Below, piece after piece: positions 20,412 through 62,032 of a stretch of 64,000 nucleotides of DNA. Numbering within the stretch: position 1 is the stretch's first letter; the number at the start of each line of letters is the position of its first letter. The notes under the pieces were generated by a model that worked only from the letters and a program-made list of their open reading frames with translations, ran no database searches and was not told the origin of the DNA. Origin of the DNA: a virus (lineage: Duplodnaviria; Caudoviricetes). A program made the position numbers and the translations under genes. Where the stretch lies: the IMG/VR virus record IMGVR_UViG_3300011517_000006, positions 24,476 to 88,475 of that record. One strand, given 5' to 3'.

Positions 20412-22143
20412 CCAAGGTCACCCCCAACGGGCCCGGCGCGCGCCCGCTCGCTCAGCTCAAGCGTTTCCGCGCGCTGGAAGACATCCTGATGGGCTTCTCT
20501 GACGGCGTCGACGGCGACCGCCTTCAGGCCGGGCTCACATGGGCCAAGACCGGCCGCGCCGATTGGCGGCGTCAGGACCTGATCAGCCTCTTCGCCGCCC
20601 CGTGGGTCGCAGCCCAGGAAGAGGCGGGCTGGGAAGGCAACCCCACCCTCCAGGGCGAAATGGAGCTGGACGAGATCACGGCCGCCGCCCTGCAATCGGA
20701 TTCCAGCGAAGACTTCGTCGCCAAGCGCGAGGCCGGGGAGATCGACCTTTACGACGATAAGGTGCAGGCGGGCATCGCTTGGACGATGCGTCAGTGGGGC
20801 GAAGCGCTGGGCCTCAAGGCGTGGACGCAAGGAGATGGGTCGGAGAGCGTCGAGGGCGACGTTGGCGCGGAAATCCACACCATCCTGGTCGATGCGGGGC
20901 TACGTGACCCTGAGACGAACAAAATGGCCGCCCTCCGCGTCCAGCCGCAAGCCTCGGCCAACGACCAGCTGACGGCGGATGAGGCGTGGTCGGACCTTCT
21001 CGACAAGGACGACCGCACCTCGCCGGAAGACCAACCGGGAATGTGCCTGATCACTGCTGGCGAACTGGCGGATTACATGGCCCGCGCCCGGCCGCAGCCG
21101 GTGGCTCTGCCGCTGGAAGACGCCCCTCGCGACGGAACGATGTTGCGCCTGCGCGTCCGCTACGAGGCGGCCAATCAGGATGAGGCCTGGACCCCGCTAG
21201 AAGACAGCGAGGAAAGCTGGACTATCGGCTTCAACAACTTCGACAACACGGGCGATGACCGCTGGCAGTTTGTCGGTTGGGACTGGTCGCAAGACCACCT
21301 GTTGGAAGCCACAGGAGGCGCCGTCATCGGCTGGCTTCCCTTCCACACCCACCCCGCCCCCGCGCCGGAAGGCGGGGCGGTGGATGGCTGGCGGGCCATC
21401 GACAGCGCCCCGATTGGCGAGCTTGTGCAGGTCTATTGGCCTTGCATGGCCCTCAACGACGATGGCGAACTCACCGGCGAGATGCTTGACCGCGAGGGCC
21501 ACGTCAGCCTGTCGTTCCGGCATTCTGAAAAGCACGGCTGGGAACCTGACAGTGTGATCGAGGCCAACGGCGATGGTTTGGTGACGACTTCGAGTTCGGT
21601 CAGCCGACCCATTGGAAGCCGCGCCCCTCTCGTCCTTGCACCGCCCTCGCCACCCGCGAGGAAGCCCCGGCAGAGGCGGGGGATAGAGTGGTCCTATCAC
21701 GCGACACAGTTGAACGACTTCTGGCCTGCGCGGATACGATGATGCCTCTGTCTCCCTTGGTGGAGCGCCTGCAAGAAGCCCTCCGCGCCCAGCCGCCAGC
21801 CCGCGAGGATGCGCAGCCGGTGGCGTATTGCTGCCTAGAACATTTGACCCGGATCAGGCGACAGGCTGAAGCCCGCGGAGAGGCATCGTCGGTTATCTAC
21901 GGTTATCCGGCCGGCACATATCAGACGCCCCTTTACACCCACCCCGCCCCCGACGCGCTGCGGGTCGCCATGGAGGCGTTGGAGCCGTTCGCAAAGGGCG
22001 GACACCATCGGACCATGCCCGGTCTCTCGCCGTCCTACACGGTCGCCGACTTTGGAGATGGCGTAGTCGTCACTGTGGCCGACTTCCGCCGCGCCGCCGA
22101 AGCCTTCGCCGCCCTGCAAGCCGAACAGAAAGGCGGTGCGTGA
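20408..22143 (+). pseudogene. Mosaic multi-module (DUF551-like) gene with an apparent 1-nt frameshift near 21575
   Basis: The frame of 20408-21742 loses sense after EANGD; the -1 frame continues WFGDDFEFGQPTHW (DUF551-type PTHW motif) into the 21688-22143 ORF. Confidence 0.6.
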
Positions 22144-22400
22144 TGGCTGATCCTGACTATGAATACGACGACCGGGACGAAGGCGTGACCTGCCCGCGAT
22201 GCATGGGCGATGGATCGGTGTCCTGCCATTGCGGCGGCGACCTGTGCGTCTGCGACAACTACGGCGAGCGCGATTGTCCGGTGTGCTTCGGAGAGGGCGA
22301 GGTATCGCCGGAGCGCGAGGCCCAATACCTCAAAGCCGAAGGTGAGGCGATGGCGGCCATCCGAGCGGCATGGCCCGCCTCGTCGGAGCCTCAACAATGA
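22140..22400 (+). CDS. Cys-rich zinc-binding small protein
   Basis: CPRCMGDG, CHCGGDLCVC, CPVCFGEG. Confidence 0.6.
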   Translation: MMADPDYEYDDRDEGVTCPRCMGDGSVSCHCGGDLCVCDNYGERDCPVCFGEGEVSPEREAQYLKAEGEAMAAIRAAWPASSEPQQ

Positions 22401-22615
22401 GGATCATCGAGAAGAAGCGCGGCTATTTTCGCGGCACGCACAAGGGCTGCACGATCGAGATCGAGCGCGACCGCACGTCAGGCGATGACCGGTGTAAGTT
22501 CTACATCACCGTTCAGGGCGCCGACGGCTGCTACCGTTACGACGGCTGGAGCCCTGAAGGCGTCGAGACCATGGCCCAGGCCAAGCGGGAAGCGATCCGG
22601 GGGGCGTGCCTGTGA
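22397..22615 (+). CDS. Hypothetical phage protein
   Basis: ATGA-coupled. Confidence 0.5.
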   Translation: MRIIEKKRGYFRGTHKGCTIEIERDRTSGDDRCKFYITVQGADGCYRYDGWSPEGVETMAQAKREAIRGACL

Positions 22616-23049
22616 CCCAGACCGACCGCCTTGACGCCGACATCGAGCCCCTCTGGAACCTCTACGAGGTCACCGTCACCGCAGGCGACTACGTGGCGAC
22701 CTCGACCCTCTCGGCCGCCACCCGATCGCGCGCCGTCTACCAGGCTTTCCTCGACTACAGCGACGTCTGGACCGTCAGCTTCCGCGACTTCCTGTCCATG
22801 GTCCGGGTGCGGCGGGTCAGCAGCTGCGCCTATGACGGCTATGCCTATGTCCGCTGCGCCTATGGCGTCGATCCGCGCATCGGCGCCGAGGTCGAGCTGA
22901 TCAACGGAGGCGACTGGACGGGCAAGCGCGGCCAGGTCGTTCACCCCGGCAAGTCGTCCACTGCCTACGTCTACGTCGCCTTCGCCGGCATTCGGCACGC
23001 CGTGCCCTGCCACCCGCGCAGCATCCGCATGATCGAGGCCTCGGCATGA
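22612..23049 (+). CDS. Hypothetical phage protein
   Basis: GTGA-coupled. Confidence 0.55.
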   Translation: MTQTDRLDADIEPLWNLYEVTVTAGDYVATSTLSAATRSRAVYQAFLDYSDVWTVSFRDFLSMVRVRRVSSCAYDGYAYVRCAYGVDPRIGAEVELINGGDWTGKRGQVVHPGKSSTAYVYVAFAGIRHAVPCHPRSIRMIEASA

Positions 23050-23342
23050 ACGGCGATGATGACGACGGCGCCCTGGCCGACCACGACGAGGGCTTCAACG
23101 ACGACGGCCCGACGCTCCGCACCCTGGCCGCCGCGATCCAGTGTTGGTCGATCACCAATCTGTCCGCCCGGGTTCGCGACGTGGGCTGGAAGGCGGCCGT
23201 GGGCCCGACCCTGGGCGAGGCGGCCCTCGCCTTCGCCCTGCCTGTCGAGCGCATCAAGGCCGCCGTCGAATGGCACTACTGGATGTTCCTGACCGGCGAC
23301 GGCGCCGACGCCGACCTGGTCATCGAGCATGAGGGGGAGTGA
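23046..23342 (+). CDS. Hypothetical phage protein
   Basis: ATGA-coupled, acidic. Confidence 0.55.
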   Translation: MNGDDDDGALADHDEGFNDDGPTLRTLAAAIQCWSITNLSARVRDVGWKAAVGPTLGEAALAFALPVERIKAAVEWHYWMFLTGDGADADLVIEHEGE

Positions 23343-23926: not shown

Positions 23927-25555
23927 GTGATCCGCGTCGCCCTTTACGCTCGCTACAGCTCGGACCGACAGAACGAGCGCTCGATCTCCGATCAGTTGAG
24001 CCTCCTGATCCAGCACGCCGGCGCCAAGGGCTGGGCCGTCGTCGGCACCTACACCGACGCCGCCATTTCCGGCTCGGCCATGGCGAATCGCCCCGGGCTT
24101 CTCGCAGCGCTCGCTGCGGCCGAACGGGGCGAGTTCGACCTGCTGCTGGCGGAAGACGAAGACCGTCTCGCCCGCAACCTGGAACACTTGGCGCACGTGG
24201 CCAACCGCCTGGCCGACATCGGCGCCGGCATCGCCACCCTGTCGACGGACCGGGTCCAGGACATGCACGTCGCCTTCAAGGGGCTCATCGCTCAGGACTT
24301 CATTCGCAACCTCAGCATGAAGACCAAGCGCGGTATGGCCTCCAATGCGGAGAAGGGGCTCGCGACCGGCTCGCGCCTTTACGGCTATCGCTCCCAGCCC
24401 GGCGGCGCGGTCGAGATTGTGCCCGACCAGGCCGAGGTGGTCCGGCGCATCTTCTCCATGTACGTCAACGATCGCATGTCCTCGCGCGAGATCGCTGAAC
24501 GCCTCAACCGCGACAGGATACCCTCTCCGGCCGGCCGGGAATGGAACGCCTCATCCATTCAGGGCTCGCGCCAGCGCGCCAACGGCATCCTGCACAGCGA
24601 GATCTACGCCGGCGTAAAGGTCTACAACCGCGTCGAGATGCGAAAGGACCGCCAGACGGGGCGTAAGATCACGATCTGCAAGCCGCCCAGCGAGCACAAG
24701 CGCATCGACGTCCCCCACCTGGCCATCATCGACCAGGACCTGTGGAACGCCGCCCGGCAGCGCCTGGACAGCCGGCAGACGGCCGACCCTTCGCAGCGCG
24801 CAAGCCTGCGGCGGCGCCCGGGCCTGCTGTCCGGGCTGACCAAGTGCGGCTGCTGCGGGGCGTCCTACACCTCACTCAGCCAGGGGCGCCTGGTCTGCGC
24901 CGCCTATCGTGAGAAGGGCGTGTCCGCCTGCAATAACAACCGCCACGTCAAGCGCGCCGAGATCGAGCAGCGCGTGCTGGACGGCCTGCGCACGCGGCTG
25001 CTGGCCCCCGAGGCCATCGCCGCCTACGTCCGCGCCTATCACGCCGCCTGGGCCGAGCAGGCCGCCCAGGTCGAAGACCGCCGCCGCCCTCTGACGCGGC
25101 GGCTGGCCGAGGTCGAGCGCGCGATCGAGCGCGGGGCCGAAGCCCTGCTCTCCGGTGCGACGGCGGCCGCCGTCATCGGCAAGAAGCTCGAAGCCCTCGA
25201 AATCGAACAGGCCCAGCTCAAGGCGACCCTTGAACAGCTCGACGCTGAAGGCGCGCCGCCCGTGCAGCTGCACCCGCGCGCGGCCGAGAACTACGCCCGC
25301 AAGATCGAGCAGCTCCAGGCGCGCCTGGCCGAGGCGGCCGGCAGCACCGACGACGCGGACAGAGACCTGATCGGCAGCGTCAGGGGCCTGATCCAGAAGG
25401 TGGACATCGAGCCGATCAACAAATCGAGAGGATCGCCGGTGCGGGTCACCTTGCACGGTGACCTCGCCCGGTTCGTTCTCCCGCAACACCCACCAGCTAG
25501 TGGGTGTGCGTTGGTGGTTGGAGGCGGGATCGAACCGCCGACCTGTGGGTTATGA
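23927..25555 (+). CDS. Large serine recombinase (integrase of prophage 1)
   Basis: YARYSS catalytic serine, EDEDRLAR, recombinase domain, LSGLTKCGCCG...C...C zinc ribbon, coiled coil. Confidence 0.93.
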   Translation: MIRVALYARYSSDRQNERSISDQLSLLIQHAGAKGWAVVGTYTDAAISGSAMANRPGLLAALAAAERGEFDLLLAEDEDRLARNLEHLAHVANRLADIGAGIATLSTDRVQDMHVAFKGLIAQDFIRNLSMKTKRGMASNAEKGLATGSRLYGYRSQPGGAVEIVPDQAEVVRRIFSMYVNDRMSSREIAERLNRDRIPSPAGREWNASSIQGSRQRANGILHSEIYAGVKVYNRVEMRKDRQTGRKITICKPPSEHKRIDVPHLAIIDQDLWNAARQRLDSRQTADPSQRASLRRRPGLLSGLTKCGCCGASYTSLSQGRLVCAAYREKGVSACNNNRHVKRAEIEQRVLDGLRTRLLAPEAIAAYVRAYHAAWAEQAAQVEDRRRPLTRRLAEVERAIERGAEALLSGATAAAVIGKKLEALEIEQAQLKATLEQLDAEGAPPVQLHPRAAENYARKIEQLQARLAEAAGSTDDADRDLIGSVRGLIQKVDIEPINKSRGSPVRVTLHGDLARFVLPQHPPASGCALVVGGGIEPPTCGL

Positions 25556-25556
25556 A
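25512..25556 (-). tRNA. 3' half of tRNA-Met(CAT) only (att site remnant)
   Basis: Minus strand TTCATAA-CCCAC-AGGTC-GGCGG-TTCGATC-CCGCC-TCCAACC-A-CCA; no 5' anticodon stem, D-arm or 5' acceptor strand. Confidence 0.85.
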
Positions 25557-26728
25557 GCCGCCGCGCCCGACCCCTTAGACGATTGTTCTTCCTCGCCCTT
25601 TTCCGGACCCTTGGGCGATGCTCCGGGACTATTCCGGGAGAGCGCCGCAAGCCCGGCTTTCACGTCGTCCTCGATCGCGTGGGCGTAAACCATCGTCGAC
25701 TTGATGTCGGCATGGCCCAGGAGGCGCTGCGCCAGACGAAGGTTGCCGGTCTCCCGCAGGATCTGCATGCCGCTGTGGTGGCGCAGGTCGTGGATGCCCC
25801 GCAGGCCCTTGGCGTCCTTCAGCCCGGATCGCTTCATCGCCCGGCGCATGGCGATAGCGGCTCCAGAGGGCTTGAGCGCCTTCAGGATGACCTTCCCGGC
25901 CGGCCCGCGTAGGCGCCGCTCGCGATACCAGACCGTTTCCAGCTTCGCGGCACGCGCCCGGCCAAGACGAGCCGATAGCATCGCCGCATCCTCGGGCAGC
26001 AGGGGGATGACGTGATCGTCGCCGCCCTTCCGATCTCGAAGGCGGACGCGGGCGTTGTTGATGTCGGCCACGTCGAGGTCGTCGAGCGAGAAGAACAGCT
26101 CCGACAGTCGACAGCCGTAGCGGGCGGCGAAGCGGATCAGGTCGTGCCAGTGGGGCAGAACCTCGGCCTCGACCCGCTCCAGCTCATCCCCGACGAGCTC
26201 CTTGGGCCGGGGCTTAGGCTCCTTGAGGCGCAGGGCCTCCCAGTCGATCTCCGGAAGCCTGGCGCCCCATGCCTTCCGTGCGCGGTTCAGGATCGGCCGG
26301 AGGGTGTCGATCATGTCCCGGTTCACCGTCGAGTTCGACGGCAGGTATTCCTTCGCCCCCTTGGCCTTGGACTTCACGATGCCCTGGCCGCGGCGTCGCT
26401 CGATGGCGGTGGCGATGTGGTTGGTGGTGATGTCGCAGATGCGTGTCCCTGCCCCCACGACGGCCATCATGCGCTCGATCCGGGCTTCCAGACGGGCGCC
26501 GCCCTTCAGCGTCGTGCCGCGCTCGGCCCACCAACGGCCGGCGGCCTCGTCCAGGGTCATCTGCGAGGCGTCATCCAGTTCGCCCGTCGCCGCCTTGGTG
26601 CGGATGCGGCGTTCGACCTCCTCGGCCTTGCGCTTCGTCTCCACGCCGGTCGAGCCGTGGTAGCGCCTGCCCTTGTATTGGAAGTCGTAGGCCCAGTACC
26701 GGCTGTTCTTCGGCAGGTAGACGGACAT
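25550..26728 (-). CDS. Tyrosine integrase (prophage 2)
   Basis: YGCRLSE, HDLRH, LLGHADIKSTMVYAH catalytic motifs; N-terminal arm-binding domain. Confidence 0.93.
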   Translation of the reverse strand: MSVYLPKNSRYWAYDFQYKGRRYHGSTGVETKRKAEEVERRIRTKAATGELDDASQMTLDEAAGRWWAERGTTLKGGARLEARIERMMAVVGAGTRICDITTNHIATAIERRRGQGIVKSKAKGAKEYLPSNSTVNRDMIDTLRPILNRARKAWGARLPEIDWEALRLKEPKPRPKELVGDELERVEAEVLPHWHDLIRFAARYGCRLSELFFSLDDLDVADINNARVRLRDRKGGDDHVIPLLPEDAAMLSARLGRARAAKLETVWYRERRLRGPAGKVILKALKPSGAAIAMRRAMKRSGLKDAKGLRGIHDLRHHSGMQILRETGNLRLAQRLLGHADIKSTMVYAHAIEDDVKAGLAALSRNSPGASPKGPEKGEEEQSSKGSGAAAS

Positions 26729-60728: not shown

Positions 60729-61106
60729 ATGTCCGCAGGCGACGAGATCATCACTCCGGTCACCAAGCCGGAGGCCGTCAGCATGGCCGAAATTCATGCC
60801 ATGCGCGGTCTGACCGACGCGGTGTCGGCCCTTGGCCGTCAGGTCGAGCGGATGAACGCCAAGGTCGATGACGTGCGCGAGCGGGTCATCAAGCTGGAGG
60901 CGCGCGAGTATGAGCGCCAGATCGAGGCCCTGAACGACCGCCTGTCGGCCGCCTTCAAGCGCATCGACGATCTGGAGGGGACGCGGGATCAGCAGAAGGG
61001 CGCCAAGGCCCTGGTCGATTGGCTGCGTCAGACCGCGCCGTGGCTGCTGGCCGGCATCGCCGCCTTCGTCGCGGGCATCAGCATCAAGAACGGAGCCGGA
61101 GCATGA
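60729..61106 (+). CDS. Coiled-coil + C-terminal TM protein (holin/antiholin-like)
   Basis: Long coiled coil then WLLAGIAAFVAG. Confidence 0.6.
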   Translation: MSAGDEIITPVTKPEAVSMAEIHAMRGLTDAVSALGRQVERMNAKVDDVRERVIKLEAREYERQIEALNDRLSAAFKRIDDLEGTRDQQKGAKALVDWLRQTAPWLLAGIAAFVAGISIKNGAGA

Positions 61107-61345
61107 GCCGCAAACCGCCCCGCTGGTGGCCGCAGGTGATCAACCTGCCGCGCACCACGACCGTTCTCGCCCTCGGCTTCCTCGGTGGAAACCTGCTGTT
61201 CCTGCCGGTGATCGCCTGGCTGGGCGACATGGTGGCCGAGCGTTATGCCGACGCCGTCATGCTGGTGGCGTCGATGTTCAAGGACGGGATGCTGCTGATC
61301 CTGGGCTTCTACTTCGGGCGGAACCAGGCGTCTGATACGGGCTAG
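61103..61345 (+). CDS. Holin-like 2-TM protein
   Basis: Two TM segments ending LILGFYFG. Confidence 0.65.
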   Translation: MSRKPPRWWPQVINLPRTTTVLALGFLGGNLLFLPVIAWLGDMVAERYADAVMLVASMFKDGMLLILGFYFGRNQASDTG

Positions 61346-61542
61346 AGCAGGCACCGATCCCGCTGGCTGGCCTCTTCGCACCTGCGCCTGAGCTGAGCCC
61401 ATGTCGCTTTGCCCTCGATCCCGAAAACGTCTGACTGTGTGTAGCCTTCCCGCAAAAGAGCCCTGCGCACTTCGCTGGGAATGCGGAAGTTGCCGCTGTC
61501 GGCCAACTCCAAAGCGCGCTCGATCACTGACGTTTGCGTCAT
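61342..61542 (-). CDS. Small hypothetical protein (antisense insert)
   Basis: ERALELADSG...VRRALLREGY; RBS AGGGGAGG. Confidence 0.6.
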   Translation of the reverse strand: MTQTSVIERALELADSGNFRIPSEVRRALLREGYTQSDVFGIEGKATWAQLRRRCEEASQRDRCLL

Positions 61543-61615
61543 TCCAGACCTCCCCTGTCAGGCGAGTCTTAACGCAGATGTCTCGGCTAAGGTTGCGGCA
61601 CCGGACCGGGCGGGT

Positions 61616-61720
61616 TCAACCCACCGCGATCCAGAAGAGCACGCCGAAGATCGCCAGACACAGGGCGATCAGCACATACTCCATCACCCAGCCGACGCGC
61701 CGGCGACGCTTCCTCTGCAT
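61616..61720 (-). CDS. Small basic TM peptide
   Basis: MQRKRRRRVGW...IALCLAIFGVLFWIAVG; RBS GGAGG. Confidence 0.5.
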   Translation of the reverse strand: MQRKRRRRVGWVMEYVLIALCLAIFGVLFWIAVG

Positions 61721-61861
61721 GTCCTGCCCTCCAGTAACGCCGGTACCATCTGCAGAAATGACCAGGCTGTCCAGCCAGTGAGCGTAGGGAGGCCGCCGCA
61801 TCATGCAGCGGGCGCGTACCGATAAAGTTCAGGCAGTTCGCCGTCGGTGCACAGTGAGCGC

Positions 61862-62032
61862 TCACGCCGCTCTTTTCCAACTGGGATCGGCACGAACAGC
61901 CGTCAACTCGATGTCAACTCCGTAATCGCGGAGGATCTGGGCCGCGAGTTCGGTACAGCCGAGCACAGGCAAAGTCTCTCCAAAGTGCTGCATCCAAGCG
62001 TCAGCAACGATCTGCTCTTTCACCGATAGCAT
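61862..62032 (-). CDS. Small hypothetical protein
   Basis: MLSVKEQIVADAWMQHFGETLP; RBS GGAGTAGG. Confidence 0.5.
   Translation of the reverse strand: MLSVKEQIVADAWMQHFGETLPVLGCTELAAQILRDYGVDIELTAVRADPSWKRAA

Follow-up and report, generated by a model that had tools for sequence, protein, structure and literature searches.

A tailed-phage serine integrase gene that runs through its own predicted attachment site and ends in the antisense strand of a tRNA-Met gene

The stretch analyzed here (the window) comprises the last 64 kb of the 88,475-bp viral record IMGVR_UViG_3300011517_000006; positions refer to the window, unless they are preceded by 'contig', which denotes the complete record. In this window two integrase genes of different families converge, a serine integrase gene on the plus strand, belonging to an element that we call prophage 1, and a tyrosine integrase gene on the minus strand, belonging to prophage 2. 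Both genes end in the remnant of a tRNA-Met gene, and the predicted phage attachment site (attP) of prophage 1 lies within the coding sequence of its own integrase. The features around the point where the two genes meet are:

23927-25555, plus strand: serine integrase of prophage 1, integrated isoform (542 residues; PF00239, PF07508, PF13408)
25550-26728, minus strand: tyrosine integrase of prophage 2 (392 residues; Pfam PF00589, Phage_integrase)
25553-25555, plus strand: TGA stop of the serine integrase gene, antisense of U33-C34-A35 of the tRNA
25550-25552, minus strand: TAA stop of the tyrosine integrase gene, tRNA loop positions 36-38
25512-25556, minus strand: tRNA-Met(CAT) 3' fragment, nt 32-76, matching the 3' part of the intact tRNA-Met in the relatives L003 and G013

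The 45 nt between 25512 and 25556 are the exact reverse complement of nt 32-76 of tRNA-Met(CAT), from the anticodon loop TTCATAA through the CCA end, when the intact tRNA genes of L003 and G013 are taken as the reference; beyond 25556 the likeness to tRNA-Met is only partial. Since ARAGORN and Rfam detected no whole tRNA in the window or in the 88,475-bp contig, the stretch represents a tRNA fragment, which was recognized solely through the comparison with intact relatives. The acceptor stem pair of the tRNA is G1-C72 and the tRNA is therefore not of the initiator type; it would be either an elongator tRNA-Met or a CAU-type tRNA-Ile2. On the plus strand, positions 25550-25555 read TTATGA, in which TTA complements the TAA of the tyrosine integrase gene and TGA ends the serine integrase gene, and the final 14 residues of the serine integrase, LVVGGGIEPPTCGL, are a translation of the tRNA antisense strand. 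The serine integrase gene stops within the anticodon loop in 64 of the 120 best homologues (50-100% identity, from Caulobacter, Phenylobacterium and Caulobacteraceae) and in 12 genome loci, and the tyrosine integrase gene stops at the TAA in the loop in 12 of 18 related loci. Because the same stops recur in homologues and related loci, their position in the anticodon loop is not due to chance.

Given its domain composition, the 542-residue protein is classified as a large serine recombinase. It combines a Resolvase domain (PF00239, E = 5.6e-23, residues 4-144) with a Recombinase (PF07508) and a Zn_ribbon_recom domain (PF13408), and 309 homologues were recovered at E<=1e-30. The catalytic residues R9, S11 and Q15 are invariant (34-45 homologues aligned), as are the zinc-ribbon cysteines C307, C310, C324 and C335. 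In an AlphaFold2 model of a homologue, long helices (361-408 and 414-441) between the zinc-ribbon strands form an inserted coiled coil. The protein thereby shares the catalytic, recombinase and zinc-ribbon domains and the long coiled-coil insertion with the integrases of phiC31, Bxb1, Listeria A118/LI and TP901-1 and with SprA of SPbeta, and its sequence matches structures of the TP901-1, SPbeta and Bxb1 type weakly but significantly (E about 1e-9, at very low identity). Large serine recombinases recombine attP with a bacterial attachment site (attB) via a 2-bp staggered cut, and excision requires a directionality factor. Four small plus-strand open reading frames (ORFs; 81-147 residues) directly 5' of the serine integrase gene, at 22140-23342, are candidates for such a factor.

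The two integrase genes mark the adjoining ends of two elements:

1-25527, no strand: part of prophage 1 within the window; the whole element spans contig 1610-50002 (48.4 kb)
25557-64000, no strand: prophage 2, which runs to the end of the contig; its right attachment (att) site lies outside the record

Among the genes of prophage 1 are a portal gene, a large terminase gene and one that is primase-like, and prophage 2 encodes a separate set, comprising a large terminase, major head protein, tape measure, tail fibre, helicase and endolysin. Because each has its own terminase and structural genes they are two separate prophages, and the entire contig encodes exactly one serine and one tyrosine recombinase. 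The record is a provirus derived from a metagenome and the contig breaks off within prophage 2 or shortly past it, which leaves room for the stop-to-stop junction being an assembly chimera or part of a single composite element. We consider this hardly credible. The same junction is present in an independent 88.8-kb record (L008/L062), and both halves also occur alone, as a serine-integrase prophage on an intact tRNA (L003) and as a tyrosine-integrase prophage (L060, L061). Similar stacks are found in L001, L040 and G013, and the presence of two full sets of packaging and structural genes likewise argues against a single element. The picture drawn earlier by a sequence-only reading of this DNA, in which two convergent integrases stop in one tRNA-Met anticodon loop, the serine integrase C-terminus is encoded by the tRNA antisense strand and two prophages with different types of integrase are stacked at the same tRNA, is thus corroborated by the ORFs, the Pfam assignments, the tRNA comparison and the gene content.

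The ends of prophage 1 could be located precisely, its left end lying 22.9 kb before the start of the window. The relevant features on the side of the integrase are:

25512-25527, no strand: common core TGGTGGTTGGAGGCGG, 16 bp, which reads as the antisense of tRNA nt 61-76 and is repeated exactly at contig 1594-1609
25500-25517, no strand: P arm of attP, now the phage-derived half of the junction next to the integrase gene; found again as an exact reverse complement at contig 1610-1627, beside the other core copy
25522-25523, no strand: predicted crossover dinucleotide AG, in the centre of the 18-bp arms and, on the tRNA, where the T stem meets the acceptor stem
25482-25510, no strand: inverted repeat (hairpin) just past the tRNA CCA end; its right arm forms the outer part of the P arm

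The 16-mer of the core has one further exact copy, at contig 1594-1609, and that copy is followed (contig 1610-1627) by the exact reverse complement of 25500-25517. Prophage 1 is flanked by this 16-bp direct repeat, and the att site that had been anticipated to the left of position 1 is the distal copy. The corresponding empty site is found in the metagenome contig L061, which matches contig 119-1573 with 100% identity over 1455 nt and then continues with the tRNA fragment. L061 lacks prophage 1 and has a tyrosine integrase that is 96% identical to that of prophage 2; the same prophage-1-free junction occurs in L060. The leftmost gene of prophage 1 (contig 1660-2796) encodes a homologue of D12-type methyltransferases and is 77-79% identical to the gene that is located directly 3' of the integrase gene (int), and convergent with it, in the non-integrated, attP-type sequences L089 and L090, which is the arrangement expected after circularization. 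Judged from these junctions, prophage 1 is a discrete 48.4-kb tailed-phage insertion at the 3' end of tRNA-Met(CAT), at the T stem/acceptor stem junction.

The attP site rebuilt from the two ends of prophage 1 consists of perfect 18-bp inverted arms around a 10-bp spacer, about 46 bp in total. Its dyad centre at 25522/25523 is 33 nt short of the stop of the integrated form and thus within the integrase ORF, so the predicted crossover falls where the earlier reading had suggested. The site as a whole falls within the final ~30 codons of the gene, and recombination therefore replaces the coding sequence 3' of the crossover. Dyad scores of 13-19 of 23 were obtained for six related sequences (L088-L090, L016, L017 and L025). 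The attB site is only weakly symmetric, in our own reading of the junction sequences, and no inward displacement of the zinc-ribbon motif by 5 bp, of the kind described as distinguishing the attP and attB half-sites of the LI integrase, was recognizable by eye.

With other phage large serine integrases the element shares an attP of ~46 bp, whose inverted arms enclose a central dinucleotide, and an int gene at the end of the prophage. It differs from them in its target, a tRNA 3' end instead of an ORF or intergenic site, in its common core of 16-18 bp versus the typical 5-8 bp (PMC8092301), and in that its attP lies inside the own coding sequence, such that the protein changes on integration. 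Serine integrases have been described as using short cores (5-8 bp) within ORFs (PMC8092301). The long core, together with the little dyad symmetry that we discern in attB, could be taken to mean that the 48-kb element was not integrated by the serine recombinase and that the 16-bp repeat arose by chance, through the tyrosine integrase or by homologous recombination. We regard this as very unlikely, considering that prophage 1 has no tyrosine recombinase, that the core is centred in perfect 18-bp inverted arms beside the serine integrase gene, that elements with only a serine integrase occupy the same tRNA position in L003 and L033-L047, and that numerous independent genomes as well as the genomes of free phages share the arrangement of gene and site.

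The sequence-only reading had also pointed to a hairpin abutting the CCA end. The inverted repeat at 25482-25510 is real (12-bp stem, -20.4 kcal/mol); its significance is modest (z = -1.76, with 12 of 200 shuffles folding as well or better) and it is present in some relatives only, the median z past the CCA end being -0.97 with z < -2 in 5 of 26 loci. The hairpin at 25482-25510 lacks a T-run, and this absence together with the weak family trend speaks against a conserved terminator supplied to the tRNA. As a matter of speculation, the hairpin might stand in for a 3' signal of the tRNA or offer a further binding site.

Translation of both junctions yields two forms of the serine integrase. The integrated form (542 residues) ends in ...LVVGGG-IEPPTCGL-stop, the final eight residues of which derive from the tRNA antisense. 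The excised form, translated from the rebuilt attP, has 549 residues and ends in ...LVVGGG-HQRTPTLERTVKLAV-stop, with a 15-residue tail (...LERTVKLAV) and a stop located one base from that of the methyltransferase gene. Integration swaps the 15 final residues of the excised form for eight others, and both types of tail are found in the integrated and free relatives, as had been foreseen when different C-termini were proposed for the two states. The TGA that ends the integrated form complements U33-C34-A35 and is thereby guaranteed by any tRNA with a CAT anticodon that is read in this frame; intact tRNA genes indeed give the same TGA, as seen in L003 and the 12 genome loci. Since tRNA nt 61-76 are supplied by the phage in identical form, a target tRNA that was intact remains so after insertion, which is visible in relatives. 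A palindrome, ACGGACCGT, is present in the final codons of the excised-form tail (contig 1636-1644) and also in L087, with ACGTATCGT in L089; it might act at the level of the DNA, as a signal where the int and methyltransferase genes converge.

The same design recurs throughout the family. Tails encoded by tRNA antisense terminate 70 of the 120 homologues: 64 have the end (I/L)EPPT(C/Y)GL, four end in ...EPPT and two use another reading frame of the tRNA. The remaining 50, some of which are complete free phage genomes, have no such end, and 44 of these carry the core motif VAGG or VAGA followed by a tail that does not derive from a tRNA and measures 14-20 residues in 40 of the 44. Among 16 loci in species-representative genomes, 12 overlap an intact tRNA-Met, one a tRNA-Phe and one a truncated tRNA-Met, and two are of the attP type. 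The int genes of the attP type have phage genes on both sides and a dyad symmetry centred in the GG codons; two of them are on contigs with direct terminal repeats, which mark complete free phage genomes. L048 targets tRNA-Phe and its integrated tail runs for 17 residues through the antisense tRNA. A sub-clade (P0062, P0116, L021, L040, L043) reads the antisense of tRNA-Met in a different frame, with the tail WGRDRTADLWVMNPPL and a stop in the D arm. The integrated tail varies with the tRNA and the frame and is therefore not conserved as a protein sequence. From these counts, an attP within int appears to be common to a large phage family.

The closest isolated phages are Rhizobium phage RR1-A (L096) and Microcystis phage Mae-JY30 (L098), whose integrases share 35-36% identity with that of prophage 1 over nearly the full length. 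Like in prophage 1, the ORF runs through a dyad-symmetric site, as read from the phage genomes: the site has a core that resembles a tRNA 3' end and is followed by 16 further residues, ending in ...GRFVA and ...GVIAA, respectively. They differ from prophage 1 in their hosts and their tRNA cores. Prophages like RR1-A have been reported in tRNA-Thr genes, in a paper that makes no mention of an overlap or a changed protein end (PMC11476347).

Several known systems show part of this organization. According to a passage in PMC6070905 (citing Tojo 1996 and Magrini 1999), the attP of phage Mx8 (IntP/IntX) lies within the int coding sequence, and upon integration the gene acquires a different 3' end by recombination and the enzyme has altered properties; in both respects prophage 1 resembles it. 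Unlike here, the Mx8 Int is a tyrosine recombinase, whereas prophage 1 has a serine enzyme with a short, probably disordered tail and a new end that comes from tRNA antisense. In the primary papers on Mx8 the exchange reportedly replaces a much larger C-terminal segment. The integration-dependent immunity of mycobacteriophages BPs and Brujita and of Mycobacterium abscessus prophages has an attP core inside the repressor ORF, the viral form carrying an ssrA-like degradation tag (PMC8092301, PMC9934374). An attP core in a phage ORF and different viral and prophage C-termini are common to those systems and ours, which makes them a model for the idea of a stability switch, first raised in the sequence-only reading; there, however, the repressor is split and the integrase is a tyrosine enzyme, whereas here the serine integrase itself is split and only some tails end in AA. 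The phage phiRSM uses a small serine recombinase and a core consisting of 13 nt of the 3' end of tRNA-Ser, in reverse orientation, with attP between ORF14 and ORF15 (PMC3816273). It thus shares the use of a tRNA 3' end by a serine recombinase and differs in that its enzyme is of the small resolvase/invertase type, the phage is an inovirus and attP lies outside the recombinase gene. With its attP core in an ORF and its differing C-termini, prophage 1 belongs to the same class as Mx8 IntP/IntX, integration-dependent immunity and the SSV1-type int. The principle, remodelling of a gene by an attP inside it, is known; what appears to be new is its occurrence in a serine integrase of full-size tailed phages, coupled to the antisense frame of a tRNA. 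In the full-text literature searched, we found no serine integrase that was described with an attP inside its own gene.

Whether the tail of the excised form does something can be judged from its length and composition. The dyad centre is located 54 nt before the end of the ORF in four phages with 63-66% identity (the rebuilt attP of prophage 1, L088, L089 and L090) and 51 nt before it in RR1-A. As counted for this comparison, the tail has exactly 16 residues in the own phage, RR1-A and Mae-JY30, despite only 35-36% identity between the proteins. A C-terminal profile of 52 tails showed R/K at position -4 in 28, L/I/V at -3 in 36, A or R at -2 in 45 and A/V/L/C at -1 in 43, with an acidic residue among the last five in only 5 and Gly and Pro almost absent. 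This motif lies outside the ~25-bp P' half-site and persists next to different downstream genes in different phages. In composition the distal tail codons are coding-like, with G+C contents at the three codon positions (GC1/GC2/GC3) of 0.73/0.50/0.72, against 0.74/0.51/0.89 in the body of the gene. The predicted tail and that of P0034 share 7 of the last 8 residues, with synonymous differences in the DNA, while the proteins are 56% identical overall.

The same anatomy could also have arisen with a tail swap that has no function, the folded part of the enzyme ending some 30 residues ahead of the stop, the ORF simply running across attP in a compact genome in which, at 67% G+C, stop codons are rare, and the disordered tail being tolerated. 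This is a tenable explanation, which we place on the less probable side. It fits with the low confidence of the tail in the structural model, with an integrated tail that is set by the tRNA alone and differs in the sub-clades that use the other frame (WGRDRTADLWVMNPPL) or tRNA-Phe, and with the related recombinase of Mae-JY29, which stops right after the folded domain. It does not account well for the length distribution, since at ~0.023 stops per codon random read-through would have a mean of ~44 codons with a wide scatter, compared to the 14-20 residues observed in 40 of 44 tails. Nor does it readily explain the identical length in three lineages that are so distant, the non-random last five residues, mostly without Gly, Pro and acidic residues, or the persistence of a motif beyond the P' half-site next to differing downstream genes.

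We therefore weighed a functional reading of the tail swap. According to the sequence, a large serine integrase has inserted its own 48.4-kb phage into the 3' end of tRNA-Met(CAT), and recombination at the attP within int swaps the 15-residue tail for IEPPTCGL and a tRNA-antisense stop. The excised tail would be a translated short linear motif, with the consensus hydrophobic-R/K-hydrophobic-A/R-A/V/L at the C-terminus, and would act as a protease degron or a regulatory peptide; with its loss on integration, the integrating and the excising enzyme would differ in stability or activity. A degron would restrict the integrase to a short period after infection and after excision, and the switch would constitute a layer of directionality residing in DNA topology, added to the control by the coiled coil and the directionality factor. 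Our confidence differs between the parts. The anatomy of the site is very probably as described. That the tail swap is a functional switch is a real possibility, not far below even, and if such a switch exists, a degron that is lost on integration would be the most likely mechanism, by analogy with integration-dependent immunity. The proposal that the integrase senses its own integration state via its gene, the excised tail being a degron or control peptide and the prophage isoform without it serving excision, is put forward tentatively. As a whole, anatomy and suggested tail role together probably form the best explanation, a judgement that we make with some reserve.

A number of observations weigh against this explanation. 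The homologues are phylogenetically related and the family counts are consequently not independent. The excised-form homologue folds confidently up to about residue 516, with a predicted local distance difference test score (pLDDT) below 50 for 517-549, and no docked structure was predicted for its tail (AlphaFold2). The tail sequences are otherwise very variable, their GC3 (0.72) is below that of the gene body (0.89), and the palindrome ACGGnCCGT in the tail-coding DNA of prophage 1 and L087 could mean that the constraint is on the DNA and not on the protein. An exact-pattern scan for the core plus P' arm gave no match in viral or metagenome contigs, a pattern that also equals the left prophage junction and is not specific for attP. 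Finally, the B arm of attB may stem from an older phage remnant.

The second element uses the same tRNA in another way. Among 18 loci related to its tyrosine integrase the DNA continues past int in 14, and the 3' half of tRNA-Met follows in 13 of these 14: directly past int in L060-L064, L066 and L071, 11-16 nt downstream in L067, L068 and L070, and well downstream in L075. In the more distant relatives (about 70% identity) the gene stops 11-16 nt upstream of the tRNA fragment. The stop of the tyrosine integrase gene of prophage 2 lies inside the shared core, therefore the enzyme is unchanged on integration, and because the gene ends in the first bases of its own core the two int genes meet stop to stop. 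In G013, with a 93% identical tyrosine integrase, the 3' fragment lies beside int and the intact tRNA-Met is 39.1 kb away in the same orientation. The near relative G001 has no tRNA within 40.8 kb of the junction; it extends 2.9 kb further right and its right arm differs. A scan with the last 33 nt of the window for an adjoining right att site gave no match. From its junction and gene content, prophage 2 is identified as a second, unrelated element of ~39 kb or larger, which uses the anticodon loop of the same tRNA.

Combinations of a serine-integrase prophage and an element inserted at the same loop position are also found in G001, L001 (tyrosine Int 70.5% identical), L040 and G013. In G013 the phage-borne tRNA end is followed by ...CGGATTTCTTC, which is much like the B arm used by prophage 1. 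The phage-2-like end beside the reconstituted tRNA, in G013 and L080 (local ~1480-1580), reads ...GAAGAAATCCG plus tRNA antisense and is nearly the B arm. Given this resemblance, such elements would re-create the landing site of the serine integrase, and an attB that is ready on the phage with the tyrosine integrase may explain the repeated stacking. The DNA to the left of prophage 1 amounts to 1.6 kb at the start of the contig. A segment of it (contig 340-1094, situated 23.4-24.1 kb ahead of the window) matches the prophage 2 lysis region (60849-61873) in direct orientation at 85-92% identity, and this likeness suggests that a third element, resembling phage 2, left a remnant at this tRNA. 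Tandems of two serine-integrase prophages of the family at one tRNA-Met were observed as well, in G006 (L052, L054, L013) and G002 (L014, L026). There, the upstream integrase is fused to the P' tail of the downstream phage and has the excised-type end while integrated, which implies that attP had recombined with a hybrid site; serine integrases are said not to recombine attP with a hybrid site (PMC3783163).

Unidirectional genome engineering relies mainly on serine integrases, whose directionality is, to our knowledge, at present ascribed only to contacts of the coiled coil and to the directionality factor. A natural family in which the protein end is rewritten with each integration and excision would offer a further layer of control that is directly testable, and the isolated relatives RR1-A and Mae-JY30, together with the lysogenic isolate genome of Caulobacter sp. 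BP25 (L042), make it tractable. The conserved tRNA target could be a ready-made landing site for genetic tools in Alphaproteobacteria. With respect to the phages themselves, the data indicate that ordinary tailed-phage large serine integrases can use tRNA 3' ends and long cores while the tRNA is kept intact, and that one Caulobacteraceae tRNA-Met gene serves as a shared landing pad for two families of integrases, resulting in stacked prophages.

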